Program-made: the position numbers and the translations under genes
The notes under the pieces: generated by a model
The model's input: only the letters and a program-made list of their open reading frames with translations
What the model was told of the DNA's origin: nothing
Databases searched by the model: none
Assembly (NCBI GenBank): GCA_973895155.1
Contig: OZ316896.1
Location: 10,840,795 to 10,904,794, forward strand
From: Marsupella aquatica
Taxonomy: Eukaryota > Plantae > Marchantiophyta
Length of the DNA stretch: 64,000 nucleotides
Direction: 5' to 3'
Shown: positions 24,111 through 54,751 of the stretch, one piece after another
Numbering within the stretch: the stretch's first letter is position 1
Layout: every line of letters begins with the position of its first letter

Positions 24111-26642
24111 ATGGCTACACCTGATGCTGAGGAAACCATCGCCCCTACGCCCACTCCCGAGGAGGTGGTCAAGACTGCAGAGAGCGGTGAGAAGGAAGCT
24201 CCCAAGCCTGCTGCAGAGGAGCCAGCAGCAGAAACTACAGAGGAGACTACAACCGAAGCACCCCCCGCCGAGGACACCACTGAGGCTGCGGCCGCCGAGG
24301 AACCCGCCGTCCCTTTCAAGGAAGAGTCGAACGTAGTGGCTGACTTGAAAGACCCGGAGAAGAAAGCGCTCGAGGAGTTTAAAGCACGAATTGTAAAAGC
24401 TATCGCAGATAACGAGTTCAAGGTTCCAAAGAAAGTCGTCGAGGCTCCCAAGGAACCAGAGGTTGTTGAAACTCCGAAAGAGGCAGAGGCCGAGACTCCA
24501 GCAGCTGAAACCCCCGCAACAGAGGCTCCCGCAGGAGAGACCCCCGCAGCTGAGACGAAAGAAGTGGAGACTCCAGCAGCTGAGACTCCCGCAGCTGAGA
24601 CTAAAGAAGTGGAGACTCCCGGAGCCGAAACTCCCGCTCCAGAGGCTCCCAAAGTTGAGACTCCCGTTGAGGAAGCAAAGGAAGAAGTAGCTCCTTCGCC
24701 CGAGCCTGTAGGTGAAGCTGAGCCGGCTGCACCTGCTGTCACCACCGAAGAAACACCCGTAACTCCCACAGAGGAACCCACTCCCGTTGTTGAGGCTAAA
24801 GATGCAACAACTGCGGAGGATTCCACTGCTTCTCCGGCGGAGACCCCTGCTGTCGAAGAGGAAGAAGAGGATCTCACCCCGCCAGAGGACGTCTCGTTAT
24901 GGGGAGTGCCCTTGCTGCACACCAAGGGGGATGAAAGAACGGATGTGATTCTCCTGAAATTTCTGAGGGCCAGAGATTTTAATGTTGCACTCGCTTTTGA
25001 GCAGCTCAAGAAGACCATTATCTGGCGAAAGACATTCAAAGCCGATAAACTCCTGGAGGAGGACTTTGGCACCGATTTTGACTCTATAGCTTTCGATTAC
25101 GGAAAAGACAAGGATGGCCATCCAGTTTGTTACAACGTATACGCGCCGTTACAGGACAAGGAATTGTACGCGAAAGCTTTCGGAGATCCGACCAAGCTCG
25201 CAAACTTCATCAGGTGGAGGATTCAGGTGCTTGAGAAGAGTCTGAAACTTTTATCCTTCAGCCCAGAAGGACCGAGCGCTTTGGTACAGGTCACGGACTT
25301 GAAGTACTTCCCCGGCCCTGCCGGAAAGAGGGAAGTGAGGTCCGCCTACAAGCAGGCAGCGAACATTCTCCAGGACAACTATCCCGAGTTGGTAGTGAAG
25401 CAGGTGAGTTCTCTTCTACTGGATGTGCTTGTGTTCTTGGTATCTCTATGCAGATGATGCCTCTCGCGTTCCCGCCCGCTGCGTTGCAATATTTTTCCTC
25501 CTCTGGAGATTGTCTCCTAGACTCGCCCGTGTGTAATTGGCTTTAACTATGGTCGGGAGCTCGCACCACAACTTTAAATGATGTGGTGAAATACTCCGCG
25601 AGGAGTTGAATTCGAGTCTTATTACCTAGGTTGCCAGATGCGATGGATGATTCACAGACTTCGACAAATTTAGTTGGGAGATTTGCGGAGGTTTCCCCGG
25701 ATGACTGAGTCGTCTGAACTGATTTTGTTGGCCGCGAGATGCAGCTGACATGTGTGAGGGTTGGTTTTCAGGTGTTTATTAATGTGCCATGGTACTATAG
25801 CGCTTTGTACGCTTTCGTGAGCCCTTTCTTTACTGCGCGGATGAAGAGCAAGTTTTCTCATTACACCCCGGGAAGAACTACAGAAGGACTTTTAAAGTAA
25901 GAGACATCATTTTTTTGGATCAGCGAAGCTACGTTTGTGCTAATTCTTTGATGGGGTTAAAGATGAATCGAATATAAACTCAGTGGTATGGCGAACACTG
26001 CCGAGGCTGATAGTTTGCTTCCTGGACTGCAGATTTGTTAGTGCAGAGAACATTCCTGTTGCCTACGGTGGACTGAGCAAACCTAGCGATCCCCACTTCA
26101 GTGGAGTTGAAGCGCCTTCCACTGAACTTTCGATCAAGGCTGGGGAGAAGGCAACAATCGAGATACCAGTCACCGAGGTACCGTTCTTGCTTACCCTGGA
26201 CCAGCATCGTTTAGTTGCGTTGCAGCAGACTAATCCGAACAGGTTTTGCGTTTCTTCACATTGTGTGGGTTTTTAGAGACATCATGCACGTCTTGATGCA
26301 TAGCTGATTTGCCGAAAGAGATCTGTAGCAGTACAGTAAGGAATTGACGAGTTTCGGTTGGCATGCCAGGCTGCGGGAACTGTAGTGTGGGATCTTACTG
26401 TGGTGGGATATGATGTGCTTTACGGTGCCGAGTATGTCCCAAGTGCTGAAGGAAGCTACACTACTATCATTGAGAAGCCCAAGAAGCTAGTCTCTACTAG
26501 CGAGGAGCCATTGCGGAGCAGTTTCAAAGTTTCTGAACCTGGCAAGATTGTCATCAGCGTCGATAATGCAGCGAGGAAGAAGAAGCTCGCCATCTATAGA
26601 TACATTGTACAAACTCCGGCCGCTGAAACAGAGGTGAGCTAG
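24111..26642 (+). CDS. PATL: Patellin (Sec14/CRAL-TRIO + GOLD lipid-binding protein), ~611 aa; exons 24111-25403, 25772-25896, 26033-26177, 26370-26642
   Basis: Patellin motifs FKEESNVVADL, SLWGVPLL..DERTDVILLKFLRARDF, GHPVCYNVY, LQDNYPELV, VFINVPWYY, IPVAYGGL, and a GOLD-like WDLTVVGYDVLYGAEYVP. GT-AG introns with consistent phases give 1836 nt = 612 codons. Probable 5'-UTR intron 23621-24086. Confidence 0.95.
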
Positions 26643-31545: not shown

Positions 31546-31891
31546 TGTTGAGCAAAGACAATATTCACAATGGCAAGCCCATGATCATCCAATGCACAAG
31601 TAGTCAACATAGAGAGATACGTGGTTCACCTTAGTTGAGGCTACGTTCACGGGAACAAGAGCTTTATTGCACTCTAGGCCTGTTGGCTATATCGAGTCTC
31701 CGCAATACAAGATCTCCCTATCTAACTGGTTTTGTAACATTCAATGAGCCTGAGTTTGCATGCTATCTGAAAAAACAATGCTTTAAGATGTAATGTACAA
31801 GTTAGTTAACCTAACCTAGTCTGCGACTAAGGTCAGCCCTAACAATGGTTATAGTCGTACACTAGACTTAAGAGTAGATGCCTAATAAACA
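31546..31891. mobile_element. Solo LTR related to the adjacent copia element
   Basis: TGttgagca...aaaCA, 346 bp, TSD CAGAT at 31541-45 and 31892-96. Shares ggcaagcccatga.catccaatgcacaag and gcactctaggcc with the LTR at 32843. Confidence 0.85.
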
Positions 31892-32842: not shown

Positions 32843-33186
32843 TGTTGAGCATAGACGAGATTCGCAACGGCAAGCCCATGAACCATCCAATGCACAAGAG
32901 TCGACACAGAAAGATACGTGGTTCACCTCCACATGAGGCTACGTCCACGGGAACACACAAGAGCTTTACTGCACTCTAGGCCGATAGGCCATACCAAGCA
33001 TCCACAGCACAAGCTCTCCCTATCTCTTAACTAGTTCCGTAACAATGAGCCTAAGTTCCACCAGGGTCTAGCATCAGTCCTGGCTATATACACAATAGCA
33101 CTACCGCTAACATTAGCTAAGTCCTAACCCGAGTTAGACTAACTGTGGTTAGCTCATGAGTCACAAGACTAGAGCAATATCTAACA
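32843..33186 (-). repeat. 3' LTR of copia element (344 bp)
   Basis: TGTTGAGC...CTAACA. About 10 substitutions plus one 3-bp indel versus the reassembled 5' LTR (counted by eye, ~97% identity). Confidence 0.95.
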
Positions 33187-33188
33187 AA

Positions 33189-33197
33189 CTCCCCCTT
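33189..33197 (-). promoter_or_regulatory. Polypurine tract (PPT)
   Basis: AAGGGGGAG on the minus strand, immediately inside the 3' LTR. Confidence 0.85.
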
Positions 33198-33382
33198 GAC
33201 TCTTGTCTTGGGGACTGGACTAAATGCTACCATATAGAATCATCAGCGGGAAGTTCTAGACAATCACTAAACCAGGTCTCCCCCTAAAAACCACAACGGT
33301 TAACTAGAACTAAGCCGTAGCCAAACAGAAATGAGTAATCCATATACAAATAGTCACACATTGCTAAATAACTGTACTTGTA

Positions 33383-36300
33383 CTACAACTGCAAAACCTG
33401 CAAAGTAGCACGATGTCTTGAGAAACTCTCCAAAGGAATCACTTTGGTAAAGACATCAGCGGGATTGAGCTTTCCATCAATCTTGACTAGCTCAAAAGTT
33501 TTATCATACACTGCTTGCCTGATAAAATGGTACTTGATATCAATGTGCTTCACCTTACTATCCATTACCTGGTTAACAGCCAAGTGAAGAGCACTTTGAC
33601 TATCACAGTTTAGAGTCATTTTTCCATGCTCTAAACCCATCTCCGCGATCAACTTATCCAACCAAATTGCTTCCTTTGCTGTTTTTGCTGCTGCAACATA
33701 CTCTGCTTCTGTAGTAGACTGAGAAATGCACTTCTGCAAGGTAGATTTCCAACTGATACATCCTCCTCCAAGAGTGTATACAAACCCAGTTTTAGGCCTC
33801 CTTGTATCCAAACAGCCTCCATAGTCAGAATCTACATAGCCAACTAATGTTCTATGTGATCTCTTATCAAATAGTAATCCATAGTCTTGTGTTCCCTTCA
33901 CATACCTGAGAATCCATTTCACAGCTTCCCAATGTACCTTCCCTGGATTTGACATGAATCTGCTAACCTTGCCCATCGCTAGGGCCAAGTCAGGCCTAGT
34001 AAAAGTCATCAAATACATCAGACTGCCTATTGCCTTCTCATAAGAAATCTTAGCCATCAGACCTTTCTCCACAGCATCCGTAGGAGAGAAAGCAGATGAT
34101 AACTTGAAATGTGAAGCTAAAGGAATACTCACTGGCTTACAGTTTTCCATGTTGAATCGTGCAAGTACTTTCCTCGCATATTGGCCTTGACTCAAGCACA
34201 ACTGTCCAGTTTCAGAGTTCCTAAAAATCTCCATCCCTAAGATCCTCTTGGCCTTACCAAGATCCTTCATCCTGAATTCAACACTCAATTTTGCCTTGAG
34301 ACTGTCAACCTCAGATTGATCTTTAGCCACAATTAGCATGTCATCCACATAGATCACTAGAATGATGAAACCAAATACATCATTCTTGACTGATTTCGTA
34401 TACACACAAGGATCATACACCATCCTTGTAAAACCTTGAGCAAACATGAAATCATCAAACCGCTTGTTCCACTGTCTAGGAGACTGCTTCAATCCATACA
34501 AGGACTTGAGCAATCTGCAAACTAAGTTCTCTTGGCCCTTCTTCATAAAGCCTAGTCGTTGTCTCATGAAGATCAACTCTTCCAAGTTTCCATAGAGAAA
34601 AGCAATAACAACATCCATCTGATCCATCACCAGACCAAAAAACACAACAAGCTGACACAAGATCCGAATTGTGGAATACTTAGCCACCGGTGAAAAGACC
34701 TCATATACGTAGTCCACTCCTTTCTCCTGAGTGAACCCCTTGGTAACAAGCCTTGCCTTGTAGATCTTATCTCCACCCTCTAAAGGACTGTACTTCAACT
34801 TGTAAATCCACTTGTTGTCCACCACTTGTTGACCTCTTGGTAGCTCCACCAGCTCCCATGTCTTATTGTCACTCAAAGATTGCAACTCCCTCTGCATTGC
34901 TGTATTCCACTCATGCTTATGCTCTCAAGCACAAGCCTCACTGTACGAAGAAGGCTCTCCTTCTTCCAAGATCAAAGCCATATCATCATCATCAGGTGCA
35001 ATATCAATGTCATCTAGCTTAGATGAGTCTGCCCATTGACCATACCTGATAGGAGCTCTACTAGAACAACTGGAAGTTCTTCTAGTAGATGACTCAGGCT
35101 GATCTGTTGCTGCTGCTGGCTGAATTTGAGGTACCCCAGTAACAATCTGCTCTTGTTCCATCACAAGAACCAGATCCAAGCCCGGAGCTTCTCCATCTCT
35201 CTTGTCATGAATATCATCATGCCTAATCTCCCCCTCAACCCGGTCCGGGATGGGAGATTTCCCCTTGTCAGTATGGGAGTCCTGAGAACTCTCCCCCTCC
35301 TTTGATGATCTGGATTCATTAAAGGACACATCTCTATTGACAATTAGTTTACAAGTTACTGGATCCCATAATCTATAACCCTTCACACCTTTCTGATAGC
35401 CAAGGAAAATGCACTTCTTCGACTTGGACTCCAGCTTGGATCGAAGCAAGGAAGGTGTAAGCACATAAGCATCACATCCAAAAATCCTCAGATGTGAGTA
35501 ATCTGCTGGACATCCGAACCTCATTTCAAATGGCGTCTTGAATCCAATAGAATTGGATGGAGAAAAATTTACCAAATAAGCTGTAGTGTTGACAGCTTCA
35601 GCCCAAAACTCATGTGGTAAGCATGATTGACTCAACATACTCCTCGAGCGGTCCAATAGTGTTCGGTTGAGTCTCTCAGAAACACCATTCTACTAAGGAG
35701 TATAACTTGTTGTGACATGACGGATAATCCCCTGCTCCTTACAATACGTTCCAAATTCCATGGAACTGTATTCATCGCCGTTATCCGATCAAAGATATCT
35801 CACCTTATTACTAGTCTGATTCTCTACTTGGGCTTTCCACTCCTTAAAAGTGACAAAAATATCAGACTTATTGTGTAGAAAGTATATCCACACATACCTT
35901 GAGTAATCGTCTATGAACGTGACATAGTATAACCGTCCAGAATGTGAGGGAGTAGGGGCTGGACCTCACATATCACTATGTACATACTCAAATACCTCCT
36001 TGCTGGTGTGAGTTCCAACTTTGAAGGGTTTCCTGTGCTGCTTCCCTAGCACACAGTGCTCACAAAATTCTAACTTACAAGATTGCAAATTAGAAAGTAA
36101 TCTTTTCTTCTGAAGAATAGCCAAACCTTTTTCACTCATGTGGCCCAAACGGAAGTGCCACAGCCGGGCCGTCTTCTCATGAGATAAGGTTACATTGGCT
36201 TCATCACAAACAACACTGCCCTCCAAAACGTATAGATTCCTATGTCTCTTTCCCTTCAATACAACTTTAGTACCAGTTGAAACCTGAAGGACACCATTAG

Positions 36301-37648
36301 CAGAGCTCCACTGATGGCCATTTACTTCTAAAACTCCAAGTGAAATAAGATTTTTCATCATGCTGGGAATATGTCTCACATTCTTCAACGTTCTCACAGC
36401 ACCATCAAACATCTGAAATCTTACAGATCCAAGTCCAACAACTTGATATGGGATTCCATTTCCCATCAACACTAACCCGTTGGAAACCGTGTAAGAATTG
36501 AAATCTCTCCTAGAGCAAAAATCTAGAATCCAGTCATCACTACCTGGATTTGACACTACGTTGAGAGCATAACCTTGACATCACAATATGTCATCATCAT
36601 CGAGTAAATCTACCTCATACGAGCTTGATGCCGCGTTAGCAGAGGCAGTAGGGACCTTTACTCGACAATCCCTTTTCATGTGGCCAGGCTTGCCACAATT
36701 CCAACATGCAAGAGGCTTCCTCTCTTGTGATTTCCCTGTGGATTTAGATCTCCTCCGTGATGTAGATCTAAACCTGTTTTGCCCATTCGTGCGCTGCGCT
36801 GCTCTTCCCCTGTTTACATTGAGCGTAGTGCCAGAAGAAGATGCTGTCTGTGATTGATCCAGCTTCTTCTGAGCATCATCAGACAGTAATGAGCTCACCA
36901 CCTCATTATACAAAATGGACTTCAGATCTCTATACAAGAGCACCTGTTTCAAGCCCTAATATGACAACGATAAGGAGCTTAGCAGAAGCAAGGCCTTATC
37001 CTCATCTTCAACCTTTTCCCAGGTTTGATAGATCCACCGCTAGACTGTCAAACTCATCTAGGTGATCCTGCATCTTCCTCCTTTCCTTGAGCCTGAGGCT
37101 CATCAAAAGAGACTTCTTGTACAGCCGTTCTGACGCATCTTCTCGGTAGTACTTCTCTCTTAGAGCCTTGAACAGTGACGCGCAATCCGCATAATCATCT
37201 AGCTACTTGATGATGTGCGGCTTGAGATATAGCATCATTGCATTGACAACAATCACCTGCTCCGATCCTGTCTCCACTGCTTCTCTGAGATCTCCTCTTC
37301 TCCATCATACTGCTCTCGCGATGAAAGCAGATGAGCTAAGCCCATGGCCCGTAGAACACCCTTCCCTTGCTTCTCCCACAACAAGAAGTCAGTACGACCA
37401 TCGTACTTCTCCATCTCAAACTTCACTCCTCCAAATCTAGCCATCTCCCTCTTCTTCCCCACTACCGATAGCTCTGGTAGTATAACAACTTCCTCCACTG
37501 CACGCCGCACCGGTGATCGTACCGGTGTCACTAGTTCCTCCTCAAACGGTAGCAGCTCCTCCTCAGACTCTCCGTCTAACCGTCGCGATCCTGAAGCTCC
37601 ACTGACGCCAATTCTTCCAGTATCCTCCGAGTCACTCATATGAAACAA
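33383..37648 (-). pseudogene. Copia gag-pol polyprotein, disrupted by stops, frameshifts and a protease-site deletion
   Basis: Gag KFEMEKYDG..F.LW; zinc knuckle CWNCGKPGHMKRDC; PR WILD; GAG-pre-integrase LWHFRLGHMSEKG..CEHC; INT FWAEAVNT, KCIFLGY; RT YKARLV.KGF.Q, IYVDDML; RNase H STTEAEY, KHIDIKYHFIR, NPAD.FTK. The reading frame is broken between these ORF pieces. Confidence 0.95.
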
Positions 37649-38385
37649 TCATGAAAAAAGTTATTTTTCAAAACTTCTCATAAAACTCAAAACTCAGCAC
37701 CGCCACGTAGCCCACAAAGCTAGGAGTCCAAAACTGAAAGCCGAAATCAAAATCAAAATTCGACGCAAAAGTTATTCAAATTTTGGTCGGGGTGGGTAAA
37801 ACCTTGGGAAACTCCCCCGTTTTGACCACCTCGGAGAATAATCAAAATACCAAGTACAACCCGTCGTCGGAATCGCGATGTGATCGGTGCGCCGCGTTGC
37901 CAACTTCAATGGCTACGTCCTCACCAAAAAAGAACTCAAAAAGTTATCATTTGGCGGACGGAATCTTTGTCAAACGGCCAAAAAACAGCTCTCTATTTTT
38001 TGGGAATATTCCCGCAAAGTCCGACAGGTCTCACAGGGGGCCGTTCCCCCTGTCGGAGCGATTAAAACGGAGGGCGGCAGGTCCCGGCACAAGGGACACA
38101 AAGAGGGAGGGAAAAATGGGATAAAAATAGGCCCTTAAAGGGGGTGATTAGCCCTTTAACAAAAAATACAGGGTATAAGGGCGAGGACGAACAGCGTATG
38201 CCTCGGGTACGCCCAGGGGATACTCAGGTGGCTGCGTACAGTTGCGGGGCCGGGTGAACAAAAAATAATTTGCAAGGAGGAGTGAGGGGCGACAAGCGGC
38301 CGGCAGGTTGCGCGCAGAAGGCAGGGCGCAAAGGGGGTCAGGGCTGCCGAAGGGAGGGCGCGAGGTAAAAAACCAGAGGAAAATT

Positions 38386-38397
38386 GCTCTGATACCA
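38386..38397 (-). promoter_or_regulatory. Primer-binding site for tRNA-iMet
   Basis: TGGTATCAGAGC on the minus strand, 2 nt inside the 5' LTR boundary (38400). Confidence 0.9.
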
Positions 38398-38399
38398 CT

Positions 38400-38564
38400 T
38401 GTTGAGCATAGACGACATTCGCAACGGCAAGCCCATGAACCATCCAACGCACAAGAGTCGACACAGAGAGATAGGTTCACCTCCACATGAGGCTATGTCC
38501 ACGGGAACACACAAGAACTTTACTGCACTCTAGGCCGATAGGGCATACCAAGCATCCACAGCAC
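38400..38564 (-). repeat. 5' LTR of copia element, inner part
   Basis: Matches 32843-33010 up to ...tccacagcac, where the CACTA element begins. Confidence 0.95.
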
Positions 38565-38584
38565 CACTACTACATATTTGCCAA

Positions 38585-39110
38585 TTTTGCGAAGGTGTTT
38601 TACAAGAGGAAGAAAGCTTTGCAAGATTAATCTCATCGCTAAGCTTGCGATATGATACGCATCGCACTTAGCGAATCTACACACATCGCAACACATAATT
38701 GCGAAACTTAGACCATCGCAACATTTTACGACACTTCAGGTATCGCAAAACATTTCCGAAGCAACTACCATTGAACAAGTTAGCGATTTTTACCGCTTCG
38801 CAAACTCATTGAGATGCGCCGGAAAACTAAATGGTTGCGAATATTAAAGCATCTCAAAATATTTTGCGAGTCTTATTGTCTCGCAAATGAGCGATGTTTG
38901 TGGAATATATGGCTAACTTGCGATAGTAATAGGCTCGCAAATCCTGTGCCTGTCTAGGGTCTCATTTTGTGAATGTTTTGGTTTCGCAACTTTGAGATGG
39001 TGGTATCTTCAGAAGTTTGCGATGAGGGGATGATGGCAATTAGGGAGCAGTTAAGTATCGCAAATGTAGCGATGAGTTTGCGGGTGTAGGGGTTTTGCAA
39101 GATGTTTCGC
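38585..39110. repeat. Left subterminal repeat array (TCGCAA/TTGCGA)
   Basis: Many copies of tcgcaa/ttgcga and variants in both orientations. Confidence 0.85.
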
Positions 39111-39919
39111 AAAATATTATGAGCGCTTCAAAGAGGTGGAAAAGGAATGGGATTGGGGAGGGAGGGTAAAGGAGGGTGGATACATGTAATTTTTAGGGAG
39201 GGACAATGAAAAGGAGGAGGAAGGGAATGGGGCTAGGAGGGACAAGGAACGGAGGGATCCAAGAGGGAGGATACAGGTTTAGGGGGCACAAGGAAATGAG
39301 GGAGGAGGAAGGGTATGTAGATATAGTTTTAGGGAGGGTTTGGATTTAGGGAGTGAAAATAAAAAGGAGGGAGTTTAGGGTTTAGAGAGGGACAAGGAAA
39401 GGAGGGAGGGTATTGGTTTAGAGAGGGACAAGGAAATGAGGGAGGTTTAAGGGTATAGGTTTAGGAGGGAGGAGAGAAGCTAGGTTGTATAGGTAAGAGT
39501 GGGGGACAGGGGTGGAAAGTAAGGAAAGTATAGGGTTGAAATAGAAAGCCAGGGGTTGGGACAAGGAGAGGAAGGAGGAAGGAGGGTTTAATAAGAGAGA
39601 CAGACAATGAAAGAAAGGAGGAGGGAGGTCGGTACAAGTAATAAGGAGAACAGCTAGGGGGGGATTAGGAAAGCATGGAGGATAGAGGACTACAAGCAAC
39701 ATGAGTTTTCTTTGCATAAAGTCTACCAAAAGGTGTGGTGAGTGTGGGGTAGGGATGGGAGATATAGAAAACAACATTTGAAAATGATATACTTACAAAA
39801 CATAAGTTTATTGATAATTGAGAAGCGCATATTTCTCCATTCTACCGAGAAGAGAAATCTTCATATCATCAAATCTAACTATATATCCGTGTAGTTATAT
39901 ATCCACAAACACAGACCCC

Positions 39920-42900
39920 TCAAACTTGGTCCTCATCATCTTCAGGTTGGGACACAACCAAAATATCAGGCTTTTCCCCAACGATTGAACGAGACCGTGG
40001 CACATATGTGATGACAAGTGACCATTCCTCTGGGTTTGGGGGGTATGGAATATAGAAACATTGTTCCACATGACTTGGAAAAGTGAACGGCTCTGATGTT
40101 TGCCAATGAGATGGCTGGAAACTAGTGGCAGACGTCTTCAGTCGTGTAAATCCACACTCATCTTGAACCACAGTAGGATTGTTACCTGCAAGGTTCACTT
40201 TGAACCACTTGCACTTGAAGACATACTCTTCAAACTTTGATTGTGCATCATAAGATATCACTAGAATCTCTTCTACCTTTCCATAATGTGGCACAACATC
40301 TCGAATAATATTTGTGTCATGGCGACTACTGCGGGAATCTTGAGAGAATTGTCCTTGAACTCCACAATCAAAGGTACGACCCCTCTTCTCATCAAGGGAA
40401 GAAATCCTAAAATCCATCAAACCATAAGGATATGTTACACAAAAATAGACACAAACATATTCCAATTAATTGAACACACCAAGAATCTGCCTCTTCAATA
40501 TACGTGCTTGTATTACAAATGAATTAAATTAAACCAAGTGATTCAAATCAAAGGTTACTAAGGTAGATGGAGATCACCTGAAATGTCTTCCTTGTGTCCA
40601 CATTGCTGTCCTTGTTGTAACCACTCTCAAGGGACCATGAACAATGGTACGAACATCATCTGTGATAGCCGGAAAATGTAATACACTCTCTCCCCTGACC
40701 ACCATGTCATCCACCTCAACTAACTTCTCCTTCATATAGTCAAGGTACTTTGGAAAAATCCTTGGTCTTGTGCTGTTACTTTTGGCATCCTCATAGAAAT
40801 CCCTCCATTCTTCCATGATAGTGCTGTTACTCAACATGAATGTGGTCAGTTGTTTCACCTCCACTGGTGTCAACATGCGAGTTTTCCTAGCACCTATTAA
40901 ACGATCATCTTCATCTTCCCTCTCCTCTACCCAAGTACGGGGAGAGGTACAATCAATTGTGGCCAATATGTTACTACAATAGAACATACTCTCAGCTGCT
41001 AAGTATCCTGTAGCCATGCTTCCCTCAACCCGTGCACGATTATGTACATAACCTTTTAACACTGCCATGTATCGTTCTAGCCAATACATCCACCGACAAT
41101 GCACAGGACCTGCAATGGCCACCTCATGAACAAGATGAACAAGTAAATGCACTTGACAGTCAAAAAAGGAAGGAGGAAGGGCCTTCTCCAACTTGCATAC
41201 CACCTCTGCTGCCAAAACCTCCATCCCAGGGATCTCATCAGTATATATCTCCTTAGAGCATACCCATCTCAATAGTTTTCCCAATGACCAAAGGGCATCT
41301 TGCACTTCTTCACTTGCCAAGCCTATTATGGCCACAGGCAATATGTGCTGCAATAACCTATGGTAGTCATGTGTCTTGAGATACCTTGGCCACTTATGAT
41401 TGTCCTCCATCCCAAAGGCCTTTCGGAGATTGGCACCATAACCAGTAGGAAACCGCATGTCTCCTATGCGATTCTGAAACTCCCTTCTCTGGCCAATAGG
41501 AAGCACCCATGGAGCTGAAGGTCGATGCTCGATCCCTGTGATAGGATCACTTATGACCCACACGTCTGGATGCATCTCAAGATCCTCACAAGCCTCCCTG
41601 AAGTTAGTGTCTTTCTCTCCATAGAAAGCCTTTATCAAAGCCTTTCCCACATTTCCCTCAATGTGCATGGGGTCTAATAGATGGCGGATCTTCAACTCAC
41701 CCCAATAGGGCAAAGTGGTTAATATACTCCACCTTGTCAAGCTACTACCGTCAAATTGCATGGGATCCTCTGGGTCTGCCACTCTTGCAGCCATGTCTTT
41801 CCAGTGTGTAAAAGTTGTTGGCTCAGGTACATCACGCTCGTCACCAAAGGGCATATCAATAGAGGAAAATAGTAGTGGGTCACGCCTCATCTGATGTCCC
41901 ATTGGAAGAAACTTTGTATGCCCAAGATAAACAATCTTGCGAAGATGTGATGAATACTTGGCTACATCACCAAGGCTTGGGCCACAAGTGGAGCAAGCCT
42001 TGTAGCCTTGGGTTTGCAACCCACTCACAAAGCCAAATCCTGGTCATATAAACACACATTATGTTAGGATTAGCACATGGAAATGAGGGGATACCATGCA
42101 TTAGAATATGATGCATTTAAACAATAAAGTTCTTACCTGGGTAGTCATGCATGGTCCACATACAAACCCCTTTGAGTTTGAAAACCCGTGGGGTACCCCC
42201 TGTAGTCTTTCGACCATCATATACCCATACTCCTTCCCATAATTTCTGGAGTTCCTGAACCAGTAATGTCAAATAGGTGTCCATGTTCTTCACCTTCTTT
42301 GGCCCTGGGATAATCAAAGATAGCAACAAAAAACCTTTTTTCATGGACAACCATGGTGGAAGGTTGTAATTCATGAGAACCACAGGCCAGACCGATGTAG
42401 GTCTCCCCTTCCCTCCAAGTGAATGAGGGCTAAATCCATCTGATGCCAACCCCAGTCGCACATGCCGAGGGTCACGCTCAAAATCTGGCCATGTTGATTC
42501 CACATGTTTATGAGCAGGAGAGTCAACTGGTAATCGCATGACACCGGGCTCCGAACGATGTTTCTTGTGCCATACCATCAACTCGGCCAAGTCAGAACAT
42601 CTATACATGTGCAACAAGCGAGGAATTATGGGGAACCAACGAACTGCTTTCCTTGGTACCTTCTGGGTTAGCATGTTTGGCTCATACCGTGGCTCATGAC
42701 ACACTGTGCATTCTGTGATATGGGCTGTATCCCCGTGAAATAACATGCAATCATTCACACAGGCATGAATAATATGGTAATCCATACCAATGGATGAGAG
42801 AACCTTCTTTGCATCCTTCCAGGTCCTTGGCAACACATTCTCCGAGGGTAACATCAAGTCATGAAAATATTCAAATATGTCTGATAACATAGAATTGCTT

Positions 42901-44691
42901 GTCTTGTGTTTGGCTTGAATGTTCAAGAGCCCCAATATGGCAGAAAGACGCCTCAACCGAGCACCCTCAAAAATAGGTGTTCGAGCATGTTCCTCTGCCT
43001 CTTTCCATTGTTGTTGTCCCTCTGGAGTATGTTGTGGCCGTGGGTCATTTGAAGGGCCAACCTCATGACCAATGTGAGGCACATCATCCTCAACATCGGC
43101 ACCAAACCAATCAACCATGAAGTCATCCATGGCTCTATCTTGATCATGCATGACCTGGTCATCAGTCCGAGGTGCGGCTTCCTCATCAGCACCACCTATA
43201 TCATTACTTGATGAGGAATCACCCTCTGATGGTTCTCCCTCTTCTGGCATACCCATCTCCCGATATGTTGCTCTCAACCTTCGTGGTAACATTTGTTGAG
43301 ATGGTTGCGCATTCTATGCACATTACAACCAAAAAACCTCCTCATGTATATTTGACCAAGTACAACAAATTAAAATAGACTTAACACCATTCATTCAAGA
43401 CATTAAGAATTAAAGTAAATGCATGGGCTAAAACCTTATTACTCCAAAATGAGCCCAAAGGCCATATATATAATAGTAAATGGGAAGTCCAAAATAGGTG
43501 CAAGAGGATAAAGGACATGATTTCCTAATCCCACTCATAGTGTGTGAATAACTCATCTCCTGCTCTAATGGTCCTAGTAGCAAGAACTAAGCAATGGTCC
43601 TTATGATATGTCGTGCCATATGGTGCCGGCATTGGACCATCAGTAAAAACCCACTCACAATTGGCCCTACGCTTGGGCCGAGTCCCCACAGTACTATTTA
43701 TGAAACCAGCAATATTCCCATTACGTATGGGATCACCATCTATCACCCGCTGCTCACTATACCTTCTAGTGCTACCATCAAAAGTATCCATCTCTAGAGC
43801 ATATGTTTTCCACTCAGGATGTTGTGCAAGGATCATGTTCCAATGTCTTCTCTTTTAGATGGGTCCACCGTATGGGAACAAAGTAGGACCCTCTCTACCA
43901 TGAACACTTGACCCACCCTCCTCATCCATGATGATATCCTCACAAGCAAATACTCCATATCCATGTCTCTCTCCAAGTGTGGAAGTTTTCACAATCCAAC
44001 GTCTACCCCAAACCACAATCTCCTCATCAAAATCTGTAAAATAAGGCAAGCCAAGAGTGATAGGTTCCCAATCCTTGATGATAGAGGCACACTTGCCAGT
44101 GAATGAACAAACACCCCACCTACCCTGAACTAGTGTTCTGGATGGGTCATTGGGTGCTCGTGGCCTCCTGTTGGATTGGGGCCTGGACCGGGGTCTTCGT
44201 GTCTCAGTGGGCACATGAGGGTGTTCCCCTTCTGTCCCATGACTGGTACTAATTCCCAAACCCAAGGCTTGTGAAAGTGCATTGCCTATAGCATCTAAAA
44301 CTCCTTGTGATGGGACATAGGGTGGTGGTGTCACCAATCTACGCATACTGGATCCCTATTCCATGCAAACACCCACAAACAACCAAATGTGTAAACTATA
44401 TGTGTAAACATTGATTCACCTCTAAAAATAACAGTAAAGAATGGCAATCAATTGAAACAAACTTACCATATGGGATGAAGAAGCCCCGGGAGTAAGACCT
44501 CTATGATGTCCATATCTCTCAATATGTTGAGCACACACATAAGATTTTTGAGAAATTTGGCCCACACATCTGGTGCAGTCACAAAGTCTTCGGGGTGGAC
44601 CACGAGGACTAGTAACCTCGGGCTGAGGAGGAGGGGGTATATCGTCATCGGAGGAGTACTCACTACTGGATAGTTCAGAGGAAGAGGACAT
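39920..44691 (-). CDS. CACTA transposase (TnpD/Tnp2-like), ~1116 aa, apparently intact; exons 44691-44467, 43313-42137, 42039-40578, 40406-39920
   Basis: Motifs IHACVNDCMLF, RHVRLGLASDGFSP, YNLPPWL, MHDYPG|FG, LDPMHIEGNV, LKTHDYHRLLQ, FFDCQVHLLVHL, WMYWLERYM, YGKVEEI..FKCKWF, EPFTFPSHVEQCFY. Exon 1 has the CxCxxC..H zinc-like transposase-associated motif. GT-AG introns of phase 0/1/2 sum to 3351 nt (1117 codons) with no internal stop. Confidence 0.9.
43525..44355 (-). pseudogene. SET-domain (lysine methyltransferase-like) exon inside transposase intron 1; one in-frame TAA at 43855-57
   Basis: ORFs 44346-43855 and 43836-43525 are in frame (…FPYGGPI*KRRHWNMIL…). SET motifs HGYGVFACEDI, PYGG, GNIAGFINS..ANC, VLATRTIRAGDELFTHY. 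Phase-0 AG acceptor at 44357-56. Confidence 0.85.
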
Positions 44692-44839
44692 ATCCACTGC
44701 CACATTACATTGCATGTAGGGCATGATTAGGAAAAATTAGGCCATATATAAAGCGATTTTAAAAAAAATGAACTCAAAAAACAATTAGGTTGGTTTATAC
44801 ATGGGGTTTTATTACCCTTTTATATTTGTTAGCATGAAA

Positions 44840-45840
44840 CCCAAATTAAGGTGAGTGTCATGCAAGAAGAAACCACATTATAACCTTTGGGAAAATTGTA
44901 ATACCCTATGTCCTAAGTGAGGTTAGATTATTACCTGAATGAGACCCGGGCTCAACAGTGCCTATAGGTCACGTGGCTTTTGGAACATTTGCCAAATCTA
45001 GAAGTAGGAGGAAAATACTGGAAACAAAATGTAAGTTTGGATGGTAATTAGCAGCCGTCAAGTTGTGGAATCTTAGACATTTACCCACATATATCATGGC
45101 ACAACAAAGAAGGGCAAGCATAAGAATCTGTACTAACAACATTGACTGTATACATGATGTTATACCTTTTAGATGCCCGGGTTCCCACAATGCATATGCA
45201 TTAGACAAAAGTTGAGGTAGTAGTGTTGGCCCTGCGTTGTATCATGATTACATGGGTTTTCCCCTCAATTGTTAGCATAAAACCCTAAACCCTAAACCCT
45301 TATCCCCCCTCGAGTGAAAGGTGAGTGTCATGCAATAAAAACCCACCCTAGACCCCTGGGAAAACTCTAAAGGCCTAAGCCCAGAATGAAGTTGGACAAT
45401 AATTACCTGAATGAGATCCGGACTCAATAGTGCCTGTAGGTCGTGTGGCTCATTGAACATGAGCTGAATCTAGAAGCACGAGGAAAATACTGGAAACAAA
45501 AAAGTAAGTTTGGATAGCCATTAGCTTCTCTCAAGTTGTAGACCCCCAAACATGTGCATATAGATATTCTTGCACAACAAAGAAGGGCAAGGTTTATGAA
45601 CAATCTCTTTATCAAACCCTGCTAACATACATGTTTAAATATACCTTTTAGATGTCCGGGTTCCCACAATGCATATGCATTAGACAAAAGTTGAGGAAGC
45701 AGTGATGGTCCTGCACTGGATCATGATTACATGGGATTTCCCTCAATTGTTAGCATAAAAACCAAAACCTCATCCCGCTTCAAGTGAAAGGTGAGTGTCA
45801 TGCAATAAAAACCCACCATAGACCCTTGGGAACTCTAAAA
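44840..45840. repeat. 470-bp tandem repeat (~2.1 units) between the divergent CACTA genes
   Basis: gtgagtgtcatgcaa at 44851, 45321 and 45791 (exact 470 spacing). Other shared blocks include ttcccacaatgcatatgcattagacaaaagttgagg. Confidence 0.9.
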
Positions 45841-46574
45841 GCGTAAGCCAATGAAGTTAGCAAAAACCTAAATGGTCAATTCCCTTCAACCATCCTATGC
45901 TTCTCTCTACCATAATTATATGCCACCCCTCTTGGTTACCCTCCTAAGATACCATAAAAGTAACCCAAGATACTATAAAACTGAAACCTCTCTTTCAAAC
46001 CCTCCTAAGTTGGCCTAAACCCCAAAACCCAAAACATAAAACCCCTCCTAGCTCTTACCCTCCAATACATATAACCCCAACCTTCATAAATAAAACCCCC
46101 CTGCAAACCCAAAACATAAAACCCCTCGTATCTAAGCCAATCTAAGCCCAACCTTCACAAAAGAAACCCTCCCCTAACCAGGCCAAACCCCCTCCTCTTA
46201 CCCTGCAATATAACTCCTTCAATTTTCTAACCCCCCCAATCCTTATCTCATCACATCCCACTAAAATGCAACATAATCCTCTACATCTACCCCATTTAAT
46301 GTTCATAAGCCCCCTTAGTATCCCTAACAACACATCAAATACGCATGCGAGACGGGGGTTATGGCAAAACCAAATAGCGAAGGCTTTTGTGAATCTTGAA
46401 GCTTCGCAAAGATAGAATTTGCGAAGCTTTTTGCAAAGGCCGTTGCATCGCAAACTGCGATGCGAAACGAATTGCAAAGCCCAATATTTTGAATCCTTAT
46501 GGATTGCCGAGCGCGGACAAGGCGGATTCAGTTCATTCAGGCCTGAGGAGAGCAACGAGGGCAAGGGCGGAGCG

Positions 46575-48617
46575 ATGGCGAGCGAAGAGGGGACTGGTGG
46601 TGATGGAGGAGCTTCTGGCAGCAGCGGAGGCAACCGAGGGGGGGGGGATCGATTGAAGGCGATTGTGGATGAGCATTTTTCGGTTGCACAGTTGAGTCAA
46701 ATTGATTTCACCAGTCCAGCAGGGCTGGCATCATTGAGTGCCCTTCTGGGCCAAGCCTTGCAAGCAGGTCTCACTGCAGGGCAAGCAGCAGTGGAGGAGG
46801 ATGCAAGGAAGGCAGCAGAGCAGGCGGCTGCTGAGAGGAAGTGAAAGAGGGACGAGAGAGCTCAGGCTGGAGTGCTCTCGCCTCAAGCATTGGAAAAGAA
46901 GAGGAGGAAAGATGAGAGAGACCTGATCAGGAAACAGAGGGAGGAGCAAAGAAAGAAGGAGGCAGCAAGGAGGAAGCTGCCTCTGATTACTTTAGAGGAT
47001 GAGGGGATTCCCACCGAGCTTGCTTACAATGGGGCCAAGAGCACAATCAGGCACATTGTATCCACAAATTTTGCAAGAGGAGTCGAGTGGGGCACTCGCT
47101 CAAAGGCAGAGCAGAAGCGAGTCATCAATCAGGTGAAAGATGCATTTCGAAATGGAGGAGAGATGGATTCACAGTGGCTTGCTGACAAAATTTCAAACTC
47201 CATGTCACAAGCTAGATACCATGATAGAATGAAGATCAGGTCTCACCTTAGAGATTTGGAGGAGTATAGGAATTTGCAGAGGCCGCTGCAATTCTCAGAA
47301 GATATCTGGCAGGCCTTCTACCAGACAGAGGTGAAGTTGAAAGCAGCCAGGCTCCTCAATGATTTCACAGAGAAGCTGGCAAAGGCTCGAAGGGCAAAGG
47401 AGGCCGGGAAGTCTGACCGGGACCTGAAGGTGATGGAGCAGAAGGTAGCCCAGCTCCAACAGGTTGTAGCAGAAGTAGGCGATCCACCCAACAAGTTCCT
47501 GAAGGCAGTTGAGCGAGTCCGAGACAAGCCCAACATCACCCACAGGCTGGGTCAAGGTGGCCTCCCCGGCCTCAAAGCAGCATTCGTGAGTGCACCTCCC
47601 TCTCCTCCCTTGACTTCTTGCTACTCCAATTCCTATTCCAACACACCTGCAATGAGCCAACTCTTTCTTGCATTTCCACCAAGTAGTTACAATTAGACTT
47701 GTTGTGTCAGATTAGGTCACGTACAGTTGCTTCCCTCTCGGGTTTTTGCCATGACAGAGTTTGCGATACATTTGCGATGCGGGTAGCTTCGCAAATCCTT
47801 CGCAAACCTTATTATGCCCTTTTTTTGCTTACGTTTGCGAAGGTGTTGTGAAGACGTTGGCTTCGCAACCAGCTTCGCAAAATTTCAAAAATTTGAATTT
47901 TTAAATTTTCCGATCGTTTAAGTGTTCTTTGAGGGTCTTCCCCATATATGCCACCCTCCATAACCCCAAAACCTTGATGCACCACCCCACGAGCCCCAAC
48001 AAACCCCCTAATTTTTAGAAGCCATGTGAATCGGGTTATGGGTTGGTGTTAACCCAATTGTGCTGGTTTTGTTTTGGCTTAGTACAAGAGGTACAAGAGG
48101 AAGATTACGGCGGCTGAGATGGAGGTGGGCCAGAAACATGGGAAGGAGCATCTCTTTCAGCAAGTTGATGAATTATTGGTGAGAATTTTTAGGTTATTAC
48201 ATTCATTGCAATTTTGAATGAATATCTCTTTTGTTCACACTTGTAAAGAATATGAGACTAACAGACACCCTGGTTTGCTAATGGAAGCAGGGAGGGGAGG
48301 ATGGTGACTCCCATACTGAGGGTGGCACCGATAGTAGTGATGAGGATGTGGAGGGGACAGGGGAGGGGAGCACAGCTCATGTTACTCAAGCCAGGCCAAC
48401 TAGCACTGGAGACCAGTCATTTGCATCAGCACGTTCCAGTGGTGCTGGGGGTGGTAGCGCGGCAAACCAGGGCGGTGGAGGTGGGGATGAGGATGAGGAT
48501 GAGGATGAGGGTGACCCCGAGGGTGACCAAGAGGAGGAGGAAGTCCAGGTTGCACCCCCCCCCAAGAGCACACAAGGGCAAGGAGAAGGCCAAGGGGAAG
48601 AAGGCAAGGAGGGGTAG
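46575..48617 (+). pseudogene. TnpA/Ptta-like second CACTA gene, ~477 aa, one in-frame TGA at 46842-44; exons 46575-47585, 48083-48178, 48291-48617
   Basis: ORFs 46419-46844 and 46872-47696 are in frame across one TGA (likely CGA>TGA). Two phase-0 GT-AG introns. THRLGQGGLPGLKAAF|YKRYKRKITAAEM resembles the H..G motif of En/Spm TnpA-family proteins. Acidic C-terminal tail. Confidence 0.7.
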
Positions 48618-48884
48618 GAACACTCCTTTCTAGCTCGATGTAGACAAGTTGTAGCTAGAGCACTTACATCGAGTTCACATGTATAGCGATCAGCATGCAT
48701 GGCCGTGGCACTTTACCTAAGGGTTTCTCCCCTTCCATTTTGTAACTTTTGTACTTTTTCAGTAATGCCATTTTAATTGCGGCAGACTGGGTCAACATCA
48801 CTTTCCTCCCTCCTTCAAAACCCATGAATGGTCTCCCTCACCCTCACCCTAACCCAAATACACAAAAACCCATGAAATATACAT

Positions 48885-49400
48885 TTTGCGAAGCTTTTGA
48901 GAACCAACCCCCATCTCAAAGAGCCACGGTGAACGTATCGCAACCATTCCGAGGAGAAACGCATCGCAACACTTGCGATGTTGTCTAAATCACAACCCTA
49001 GCGAAGACTTCCTCTCCACACGTTTGCGAGTTAAATGCCTTCGCAACAAAGCGGTCATCCGCTTCTCGCAATCTTACGAGTTTGTTTGCATCGCAAGTTA
49101 TAGAGAAATTTAACATCGGAAATTGTGATGTAAATGTTATCGCAACGCGAGCGATTCATTTGTTCTCGCAAAATAATGAAATTTGTCGTTTCTCAATATT
49201 TGCAAGGACAGTGCCGTCGCAACGTTGCGGAGATGTTGCGACGTATTTAGAATCGCAAGTTGCGAAGTAGTTGCGAAGGGCCGTTTGCGAAGAATTTGAG
49301 ATGGGAAGTAGCGAAGATGTTGCGATGCGAGTAAGTTCGCAAATTGGGTATTTCGGATTTTGTTTCCTTTGTATGATGCGAAGGGTGGTGGTTCGCAAAA
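48885..49400. repeat. Right subterminal repeat array (TCGCAA/TTGCGA)
   Basis: Dense tcgcaa/ttgcga copies up to the right TIR. Confidence 0.85.
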
Positions 49401-49424
49401 GAGGTGCATAGTGTTGTAGTGCAC

Positions 49425-49600
49425 AAGCTCTCCCTATCTCTCAACTAGCTCCGTAACAATGAGCCTAAGTTTCACCAGGGTCTAGCATCAGCCCTGGCTA
49501 TATACACAATAGCACTACCGCTAACATTAGCTAAGTCCTAACCCGAGTTAGACTAACTGTGGTTAGCTCATGAGTCACAAGACTAGAGCAATATCTAACA
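49425..49600 (-). repeat. 5' LTR of copia element, outer part
   Basis: aagctctccctatctc...gagcaatatctaaca matches 33011-33186 with 4 substitutions. Confidence 0.95.
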
Positions 49601-52487: not shown

Positions 52488-54103
52488 TCAGCCGTGGCGA
52501 AATTTCTTCAGTCTGGGGACCTGTCTGAGGAAGCTGGAGCTCGTCGCTTCTCACGTCTCACCACTCAGTCGATCGACCAAGCGTCTAGTCTCTGCTCAAA
52601 TATACTCCTATCCAGTACTTGGTCGAAGCGGTTTAATGCTCGGCATTCATGTGAGCCGGCTAAGGCTCGTTGATACTGCGCAGTGGTGACTAGTGATCGA
52701 CTCATGCGAATTGCTCAAACATGGTGGTTTTGGATCCTCGCACGCTTTTTTTTACTATTTCTGCTGTTGCTCGTTCTCGTGATCCAGCTCGTATGGGCAT
52801 GTTCTGGGGAACTTGGCCGCTTGATTAGCAGGTTATGACGGGAGTGAGAAGCTTTGAGCTTGAAAAGATCTGCAGAGTATTTTCTTGTTTTGCTCAAACA
52901 GCATGCATGGAGCCGTTCGTAGAATTTAGGTGGGAATTCAGTTCTTTTCTGGATTTCGTAATCGCATTAATGAGGGACCCGCCGACCGGGCGGGCGACCG
53001 GGGCATTTTGTTTCAATCTTGGGACGGATCTCCTTGGATTTCTGCAATTGTTTCTAGTGGTTCGCTTGTTTTTCAACTACTAGATGATCATCGAGACCGA
53101 CCGACCGACAGACATCGCTTTATTACGCTTAGATGGCTGACAACTAAGCGCTACATGGGATCCCAATTGACCAAAAGGAATCGTTTCGATCTCGACTGGG
53201 CCATTTAGCAGTACTCGGCAGCGTTTGACCTGTTGGATAGTCGATTCATAATGAAAGCCCGATGCTATCTGTCCGCACAACTTAATTCGTGTCCTCTCGC
53301 ACCTACGGACTCATAAGCAATCCACTGCTTCAGCAACCGCGTATTATCTGTGGATTTCAGCAGAATTGGTAATGATTCTGAACATCTTCGGTTTTCCGTG
53401 TCTAATTACTTTTGGGCAAGTTCCCAATTGCAACTGGTAACCTACGTTACGTGAACATTTTGCCAGTGTCATAGCTCAGAATATTGGTCTAATTCTGACA
53501 GCTGCTCTTGCTAGTGTTTAGGCAAGTTCTTGTTGAAATTCTAAGCTGAATTCTGCCTGCACTGAGACTTCAGCATATTACCTAGATTGATTCTGAAAGA
53601 TCATCGTCAGTTGGCAGTCTGTTTCCGACCAGCTTTGATCATACTTAAAATGATGTTCAGCTGGCCTTGTTGTCTCAAAATTCAGTAGAACTGGGTCTAT
53701 TCGGTAAGTACATTGTGACTGGTTTGCTATGCGCATTTGGAGGTGCTTTTTGAATAACTTTAGAGCACAGCCAAGTAGTCATAATTTGTGTCGAGAGACG
53801 TGTACTTCTGCCGTCTCGTCTTAGACTGCAGCGTATTTGGAGCTTATTTCCATCTGTCAGTGTGCTTGCGGAGACATTTTGAGCATATTGAATCCATCTC
53901 AACCTTCAGAAGGGTGCTAAGCAATATTCGTAAGTTGTTGACAACCCCGACTAGGATAATTAAGTAACTTAGCTGCAAGATTGGAGCCTTCCGCGAGTGG
54001 CTGAAGCTCTTGGGCCTGGCTTCTACTCCTCTAGCAACACTAATTGGACTTCCGCTTCTTTGGTTGACGCAGTGATTAAGTTCAGGAGAGGGAGAGCATT
54101 TCA

Positions 54104-54751
54104 ATGCCGCCTGGTATTCCTATAGGTGTTCGCCCCTACCAGCCGGAACCACGTTCCAGAACAATAATTTGGCAGATGGAAGTCTCAGACGTTATAGAAC
54201 CACTGTATCTCCCTTCAGCTACTTATCAGAGTGCAGCGGGTTCAAGAAGATACGTTGCTGTATTCTATTGCGGTGATTTCTGGGCATCAAATCTCACCTA
54301 TCTGGAGTTCAAGGGTAACGAAGTATGTTTGACTCGCTTGGGAGACATTATAACAAAGAATAAGAGACTCGAGAGCCCGCATACTAGGCGCGATGTCTAT
54401 CTTCTCAATTACAACGCACCTTTACCAGAGTCAGTTGTCTCTGCTTTGCTGTCCGTCAGTGGTGAAGGTTTACGATCCCTTCTTATTGCTCATCTTGAAG
54501 CCCCTTTTCCAGATGGATGGAAAGATCGCAATCAGTGGGTTGTGCGCAACACGTCGCAAATGAAGCTAGACGGTCAACTGGCACTGCTTCCAAGTCATCC
54601 TCCCGACGACTACCAGTTCCTTTCGTGTCTTGAGACTGGATGGGAAGACTATCCTTCTCGCTTGGTAGCTTTGTTTCTGAGGAGCTATGTCAGACCATGG
54701 TTGCCGACTTCCTTTAATAGTTACTACGATAGAAAGAATACTGCCGAATAG
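54104..54751 (+). CDS. Hypothetical protein, 215 aa, unrecognised family
   Basis: Open 648-nt ORF after a CAG acceptor (54083-85). A decayed paralog at 61429-62007 keeps the same acceptor-to-ATG spacing and similar peptide blocks, which supports real coding status. Confidence 0.65.
   Translation: MPPGIPIGVRPYQPEPRSRTIIWQMEVSDVIEPLYLPSATYQSAAGSRRYVAVFYCGDFWASNLTYLEFKGNEVCLTRLGDIITKNKRLESPHTRRDVYLLNYNAPLPESVVSALLSVSGEGLRSLLIAHLEAPFPDGWKDRNQWVVRNTSQMKLDGQLALLPSHPPDDYQFLSCLETGWEDYPSRLVALFLRSYVRPWLPTSFNSYYDRKNTAE

Follow-up and report, generated by a model that had tools for sequence, protein, structure and literature searches.

We analysed a window of 64,000 nucleotides from the liverwort Marsupella aquatica (GenBank assembly GCA_973895155.1, contig OZ316896.1, positions 10,840,795 to 10,904,794 of the forward strand), which holds a complete CACTA transposon of 10,857 bp, running from CACTA at 38565 to TAGTG at 49421, whose transposase gene carries an exon for a SET domain within its first intron. 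The element is flanked on both sides by a 3-bp target duplication, CAC, and its insertion splits the 5' long terminal repeat (LTR) of a Ty1/copia element; the uninterrupted target site is present in the other LTR, and after taking out the insertion the LTR pair is identical at 331 of 341 positions. The CACTA...TAGTG termini, the 3-bp duplication, a TnpD-type transposase and subterminal repeats place the element in the CACTA superfamily, the identity proposed in a first-pass annotation made from the sequence.

Exon 1, on the minus strand (44691-44467), encodes MSSSSELSS...LCDCTRCVGQISQKSYVCAQHIERYG...SHM and ends in ATG directly ahead of the donor GTAAGT, behind which lie two phase-0 acceptors (Table 1). 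The AG at 44357-56 opens an 831-nt exon closed by TAG at 43527-25, exon 1 and the SET exon together making 351 codons, and the AG at 43315-14 opens the transposase body; joining the four transposase exons by script from their coordinates gave 1,116 amino acids with zero internal stops and Pfam matches to Transposase_21 (E 3.3e-40), DUF4218 (E 2.3e-33) and DUF4216 (E 3.3e-8). The splice sites, frames and lengths are exactly those of the first-pass annotation, which had also called the product of the near acceptor a zinc-finger-SET fusion. The CxCxxC-x12-H motif behind that name is present, but exon 1 has no direct match in Pfam; against a profile made from the PF13963-bearing N-termini of angiosperm transposases it scores weakly (10.8 bits, E 2e-4 among 12 sequences), and because of this match we regard it as the transposase's own N-terminus, ordinary for a CACTA element and not a captured domain. 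Read-through of intron 1 as a source of a continuous protein is ruled out by in-frame stops and by a length that is not kept modulo 3. The Sphagnum-type transposase (locus L001, 2628-2773) has an additional intron of 146 nt in exon 3 that the window element does not have (near 41440).

Table 1. Features of the CACTA element in the window (positions are those of the window).
Feature	Position	Strand	Basis
Exon 1, common to both products; acidic/Pro-rich start and CxCxxC-x12-H motif (PF13963-like)	44467..44691	-	Phase-0 donor GTAAGT at 44466
Intron to the near acceptor, 111 nt, ending GAATAG; closed in frame (3 stops)	44356..44466	-	Donor and acceptor kept where interiors differ
SET exon (an alternative last exon) of 276 codons closed by TAG, comprising a variable linker, a conserved pre-SET segment and the SET core (aa 132-273)	43525..44355	-	Pfam, homologues, fold
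Premature TAA in the SET exon	43855..43857	-	Sister contigs and homologues read Tyr
AT-rich spacer, 211 nt; likely holds the 3' untranslated and poly(A) region for the SET isoform; also closes the long transposase intron (acceptor GCATAG at 43315-14)	43314..43524	-	Poly(A) use inferred
Transposase exons 2-4 (43313-42137, 42039-40578, 40406-39920), open; Transposase_21, DUF4218, DUF4216	39920..43313	-	Pfam, joined translation
Complete CACTA element; short imperfect terminal inverted repeats CACTAC(T/A)ACA	38565..49421		Termini and CAC duplication
Divergent second gene (ORF2): ATG 46575, TGA lesion 46842-44, donor after 47585, more exons to ~48600	46575..48600	+	Divergent from exon 1, upstream
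Left subterminal array, TTGCGA/TCGCAA motifs, 16 in 1 kb	38501..39500		Motif count
Right subterminal array, TTGCGA/TCGCAA motifs, 19 in 1 kb	48501..49500		Motif count

The 43 homologues of the SET exon are 45-83% identical to it; among them are Calypogeia fissa models and a cluster that gathers 360 sequences of several Sphagnum species. Its close named relatives all come from mosses and liverworts. In Sphagnum and Calypogeia, independent gene models of 343-359 amino acids start at exon 1 and join it to the SET exon by the same splice. Scanning metagenome contigs with the SET exon gave 44 loci, 42-43 of which form one subfamily, the locus counts thus standing for about three lineages. In 25 of the 28 loci that offer at least 350 nt behind the SET match, transposase exon 2 lies no more than 400 nt away, the three misses having a truncated SET sequence, and exon 1 stands ahead of the SET exon in 16/16 loci in which the 5' end of the exon is present and there is room upstream. 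The phase-0 GT donor is kept in 15/15 loci, the in-frame AG acceptor in 14/15, the SET stop at the same place in 30/30 and the transposase acceptor AG in 22/25 (one displaced by a codon, two lost). Intron interiors are unalike among the window, locus L003 and the Sphagnum-type loci, although the splice sites are kept, and contigs of diverged sister subfamilies cease matching at the exon borders (43524-26, 43316 and 44461-64). Because there are 43 homologues and the splice sites are kept across three diverged subfamilies, the SET exon is beyond chance. Most named Sphagnum proteins match L001 at 94-97% identity.

When 1.84 billion representatives were searched with a profile, 129 matched (E up to 0.001), and 20 of these were looked up. 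Two Riccia sorocarpa proteins (P0101 and P0119) have the Cys motif and a SET domain, in two further Riccia models (P0143 and P0171) sequence of this kind runs on into Tnp2, and P0172, outside those 20 and 88% identical to P0101 over 230 residues, is a gene model that joins SET sequence to Tnp2; in a Logan record (P0103) a single frame of a 2,141-nt contig encodes both the Cys motif and the SET domain. All eight exon 1-bearing proteins that were found continue into the SET exon. Among 70 longer transposase matches none is named as bryophyte, no full-length bryophyte transposase starting with exon 1 is found and no SET domain is on record. In a quick tree of 64 transposase cores, for which 60 of these 70 matches were offered and one was dropped as short, the five SET-linked cores form one side of a branch with a support of 91 in the Shimodaira-Hasegawa-like approximate likelihood ratio test, host kinship being a confounder here since the remaining named rows are flowering plants. 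A SET tree of 88 rows (8 short rows dropped) makes the P0143 and P0101/P0172 lineages sisters, as does the transposase tree, and P0119/P0171 are set apart in both; with four lineages only, this is consistent with the SET exon and the transposase having been inherited together.

The SET core of moss and Calypogeia elements (P0002, P0003, P0093; L001) is 77-79% identical, and either is 34-43% identical to Riccia (P0101, P0119); horizontal transfer between bog bryophytes is possible from these identities. More remote members of the SET family are Ginkgo Gb_21150 (P0221, E 9.8e-4) and, from Calypogeia, two divergent pairs whose N-termini differ (P0162, P0163); domestication, or carriage by other elements, could account for them.

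With X in place of the stop, the SET exon matches the Pfam SET family (PF00856) at 27.1 bits (E 5.8e-6, residues 132-273), and the part behind the stop alone gives 25.9 bits, the curated cut-off being 22.4 bits. Of 95 family members, 65 match Pfam SET (E up to 0.01) and no other family matched. We modelled an intact relative, P0001, which is 81% identical to the window SET protein, with AlphaFold from a 95-sequence alignment, and obtained a predicted local distance difference test score (pLDDT) of 94.1 and a predicted template modelling score of 0.88; a smaller alignment of 26 close sequences had given a pLDDT of 46 and no profile match in the PDB, both of which the larger alignment resolved. 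Foldseek placed LegAS4 first with this model, then SET8, MLL and ATXR5 (E 1.8e-7 onwards), and VIA-align returned Set1, EZH2, SET7/9, SET8, LegAS4 and PR domains at Z 12.1-10.5, mostly tied (root-mean-square deviation 2.6 over 124 at Z 12.1). Viral SET folds did not outscore cellular ones. By sequence profile the closest solved structure is LegAS4/RomA (E 3.5e-8), followed by EZH2 (E 3.6e-4).

The active-site residues are kept as G66-x-G68, Y90, Y113, N148, E196 and Y201, and across the family the GxG glycines are found in 78/83 and 83/84 sequences, Y/F in 86/86, Asn in 82/93, Glu in 77/79 and the terminal Tyr in 73/78. The glycines that bind S-adenosylmethionine (SAM), the Asn and the catalytic Tyr are maintained to about 25-30% identity. 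A catalytically dead LegAS4 allele is described as altering Tyr135, Ser158, Tyr159, Asn181, Tyr220 and Tyr231 (bioRxiv 10.64898/2026.05.29.728679), and the first five of these correspond, by hand count in the profile alignment, to P0001 Y90, T112, Y113, N148 and Y201, four of them strongly conserved. The residue after the Asn is Ser in 87 of 93 family members (NS for the usual NH), and in LegAS4 Phe takes the place that His occupies in most SETs; since LegAS4 is active, the His is not strictly required for activity. On the model and these residues, we lean towards the SET isoform being a catalytically active enzyme, a predicted lysine methyltransferase.

The premature TAA in the window copy is of a different kind from the NS motif. 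In contigs of all four public runs that hold the stretch, position 43855 reads G for T (plus strand) in all or nearly all of the depth (4925.8/4925.8, 11410.6/11410.6, 213570/213570 and 320315/320562.6), which makes the codon Tyr, and Tyr stands at this position in 16/16 aligned homologues. From these comparisons the TAA is read as private to the window copy, by mutation or assembly error alike. Six near-identical contigs in one run, X1, with 15 of 2,868 bases different from the window and depths of 525-631, suggest a young, high-copy family, although depth is no copy number and X1 could itself be the source of the window.

We estimated the ratio of nonsynonymous to synonymous divergence (dN/dS) by the Nei-Gojobori method between the window and the Sphagnum-type or L003 copies. 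The SET core gave 0.26-0.27 (bootstrap 0.16-0.44) and its motif-bearing part 0.20 (0.11-0.33), alongside 0.19-0.22 for exon 1, 0.07-0.17 for the transposase core exons and 0.31 for the acidic N-terminal part of the transposase. Synonymous divergence (proportion of synonymous differences, pS) is lower in the SET exon (43528-44130, against L001, L003 and L004; pS 0.38-0.41) than in the transposase and ORF2 (0.50-0.67) and elsewhere (0.47-0.67), and the dN/dS ratio of the SET exon is raised because of it; the low pS may stem from added RNA constraint or from later exchange of the exon between subfamilies. As far as sequence comparison goes, the SET exon is conserved under purifying selection in sister and distant elements and the layout is real.

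The first-pass annotation had placed the SET exon inside transposase intron 1 with a shared first exon, and both this arrangement and the SET assignment are borne out by the loci, the profile match and the modelled fold; a comparison of dN/dS in relatives gave 0.2-0.3 between subfamilies, so the exon is no one-off capture. Its two reservations, the single TAA and the NS motif, prove to be a private lesion where sisters read Tyr and a trait of the whole family, respectively.

The second gene of the element, open reading frame 2 (ORF2), stands divergently upstream of exon 1 in 9 related loci and is conserved in Sphagnum-type loci with a dN/dS of 0.14, and its TGA at 46842-44 is replaced by an open reading in 8 of the 9 related loci examined. 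ORF2 has no meaningful match in Pfam or the PDB, and is a candidate for the TnpA-like DNA-binding factor of such elements. Its first intron contains a TTGCGA cluster, and beyond the two subterminal arrays this motif and its complement TCGCAA cluster at 46001-46500 (3) and 47501-48000 (7), around the second gene, with almost none otherwise across 36-52 kb. The window copy is an old insertion, with one stop each in the SET gene and ORF2. About 2.5 tandem copies of a 470-bp unit lie at 44848-46000, between the two divergent genes; in locus L013 the corresponding interval spans only some 650 bp. Purine/pyrimidine skew marks degenerate repeats containing TAAACCC-like words at 39195-39690, near the left end, and at 45997-46240, upstream of ORF2. 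The surrounding Ty1/copia element (32843-49600, minus strand) retains reverse transcriptase, integrase and protease domains and a broken gag between LTRs that are 97% identical, and a third, older LTR-like piece lies at 31546-31723. Further out, the window contains the first exon of a patellin-like host gene with CRAL/TRIO domains (24066-25454) and, on the plus strand at 54080-54748, an open frame of 223 codons with no Pfam match.

We consider that these data are best explained overall by a bryophyte CACTA lineage with a selected SET exon, in which two proteins come from one gene and the SET isoform acts on chromatin, and we put the probability of this explanation at roughly 0.55. Transcription would start from one promoter, and splicing of exon 1 to the near acceptor with an RNA end in the 211-nt spacer would give the predicted 351-residue lysine methyltransferase; skipping of the SET exon and use of the far acceptor would give the 1,116-residue transposase, both products carrying the same CxCxxC-H N-terminus. 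That splicing and poly(A) choice operate in this way is, from the arrangement of the sites, quite probable. The SET isoform would then methylate a chromatin lysine, on a histone tail, a silencing protein or a protein of the element, to the element's benefit, and may be recruited through the common N-terminus or through the TnpA-like ORF2 protein; a chromatin substrate and an anti-silencing role are tentative proposals that we rate below even odds. More speculative, and in our opinion doubtful, is the fuller scheme of an old bryophyte CACTA lineage writing its own histone mark, in which the choice of acceptor and poly(A) site would switch the gene between the transposase and a minimal SET methyltransferase without the His, the N-terminus or ORF2 would target cognate copies, and the mark, possibly on a non-canonical lysine as with LegAS4, would counter silencing and feed back on splicing.

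Several observations weigh against this explanation, beginning with the few lineages behind the locus counts. The junctions 44467>44355 and 44467>43313 are unseen in contigs of eight DNA-like runs, which has no bearing on expression either way. As for catalysis, the window SET protein stops 3 residues past the catalytic Tyr, the family median tail being 5 residues (37 of 73 have at most 5), and the cSET/post-SET segment, like LegAS4 Tyr231 behind the SET core, is without a counterpart in the family; this missing C-terminal segment, for which the conserved N-terminal extension or a partner might substitute, is the main argument against enzyme activity. PR domains, several of which are inactive, equal active SETs in the VIA-align search (Z 10.8 and 10.5), and the His of the NH motif is replaced by a near-invariant Ser. 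On these grounds the spliced SET isoform could be a pseudo-enzyme that does not methylate and instead serves as a reader, decoy or scaffold, its ligand being a histone lysine, SAM or a host Polycomb/SUVH partner. We hold this to be unlikely, since the SAM-binding glycines, the Asn and the catalytic Tyr are kept across such distant relatives and LegAS4, the nearest solved relative, has no His and yet is active.

The start of the SET protein can also be read differently. Most subfamilies have an in-frame ATG at codon 4-6 of the SET exon (codon 4 in the window and the Sphagnum type, codon 6 in L003), and many annotations, as models of 263 amino acids, start at this internal ATG, so the SET frame may be a separate nested gene that starts at codon 4, yields about 272 amino acids and leaves out the Cys-rich exon 1; the element would still encode a SET accessory protein, as in HarbingerS and Plavaka. 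Against this, the in-frame acceptor is kept while the interior of the intron varies, P0002 and L042 lack the ATG, only 111 nt separate exon 1 from the SET exon, and P0103 holds both parts in one frame, all of which makes a nested gene distinctly improbable.

Exon sharing by alternative splicing is also preferred over a main product in which the SET exon is spliced into transposase exon 2, an element-borne analogue of SETMAR, as four gene models that link SET sequence to transposase (P0031, P0143, P0171 and P0172) might suggest; the join points differ among the models, three of them shorten the SET domain, they look like predictions over broken copies, and all 30 loci retain the stop behind the terminal Tyr, so that we give such a fusion very little credence. 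Comparing copies of the Sphagnum-type subfamily with one another gives a dN/dS of 0.80 (SET) and 0.64 (transposase), and stops occur in 11 of 20 loci, a pattern that we read as inserted copies decaying while active lineages do not. That the SET exon is a neutral captured fragment of a host gene (Pack-CACTA) would fit these stops, this ratio and the broken window copy, but it is largely refuted by the between-subfamily dN/dS and highly improbable, as the transposase decays alike within the subfamily, the window element has its own intact transposase, the exon travels with related transposases across moss and liverwort lineages, and the 129 profile matches contain no host SET gene besides family members and one spurious match.

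Element-borne SET genes are known from several superfamilies, but that transposons use them to write chromatin marks has, in the sources consulted, so far only been suggested. Polycomb marks are reported to silence transposons in bryophyte hosts (bioRxiv 10.1101/2022.10.24.513474). The CACTA SET family makes the idea testable: the domain has 200 residues and a confident model, and sequenced mosses and liverworts supply intact natural copies by the hundred, to which the young high-depth family in runs containing the window adds. If the fuller scheme of a self-written histone mark is true, this would be a first biochemically tractable transposon-encoded histone writer in land plants. The family also offers a compact SET variant without the His and the C-terminal lid. 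Many 'SET domain-containing' gene models in the Sphagnum, Calypogeia and Riccia annotations are transposon genes.

The first-pass annotation had known of no CACTA element with a spliced SET isoform. SET-bearing DNA transposons are already published, and in the literature searched we found no SET exon spliced to a CACTA transposase first exon and no SET-bearing bryophyte CACTA, Repbase Reports, subscription journals and bioRxiv supplements lying outside the search and possibly describing one. The closest parallel in expression is En/Spm, in which one CACTA gene gives a transposase and an accessory protein by alternative splicing, as the exon arrangement suggests for the window element; in maize Spm, TnpA and TnpD are reportedly produced in this way, a finding ascribed to Masson in 1989. 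The accessory isoform of En/Spm is a helix-turn-helix DNA-binding regulator, whereas that of the window element is a SET-fold protein whose exon is nested in intron 1, and its TnpA-like candidate is a separate divergent gene. In Arabidopsis, one gene of Spm3 (AT2TE20205) is described as alternatively spliced into a transposase and an anti-silencing TnpA, and the main text of that preprint contains none of the words 'methyltransferase', 'moss' or 'bryophyte' (bioRxiv 10.64898/2026.08.24.746577).

SET domains are described in Helitron captures and in PAG2 of red-algal Plavaka elements of the EnSpm/CACTA superfamily (bioRxiv 10.1101/2025.02.11.637652). PAG2 resembles the present case as a SET in a CACTA-superfamily element and a proposed chromatin modifier, but from its description, rather than its sequence, it is set apart as a gene of its own, an adenine methylase fused to SET, in Plavaka elements of 17-19 kb. 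In the window element a canonical Tnp2/DUF4218/DUF4216 transposase shares its first exon with SET, and neither the SET exon nor its relatives match any methylase family in Pfam. A gene for a SET lysine methyltransferase is likewise reported in DNA transposons of the HarbingerS and oomycete MuDR kinds (PMC12730594); they belong to other superfamilies and hosts, and the SET genes are presented there as incorporated accessories and not as a spliced isoform of the transposase. VANC of the VANDAL Mutator elements, named in PMC12730594 and PMC8616336, is an element-encoded anti-silencing factor as proposed here for the SET isoform, but it is no SET enzyme. SETMAR, which is named in the same two articles, has SET beside transposase sequence. 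In SETMAR the direction is the opposite of that of the CACTA SET exon: a host gene, present in one copy, captured a mariner transposase.

LegAS4/RomA of Legionella, first by profile and by Foldseek, is the nearest solved match: it too has no His after the Asn, and five of its six tested active-site residues align with the SET family. It methylates H3K14, as described in bioRxiv 10.64898/2026.05.29.728679. The identity is about 21-28%, and LegAS4 has a cSET helix and an ankyrin reader, the SET family being without both; because LegAS4 lies level with other SETs in VIA-align (Z 10.9 against a top of 12.1), neither common origin nor H3K14 specificity follows. What distinguishes the window element among these systems is the sharing of an exon with the transposase in land plants, together with a His-less, lid-less SET domain.

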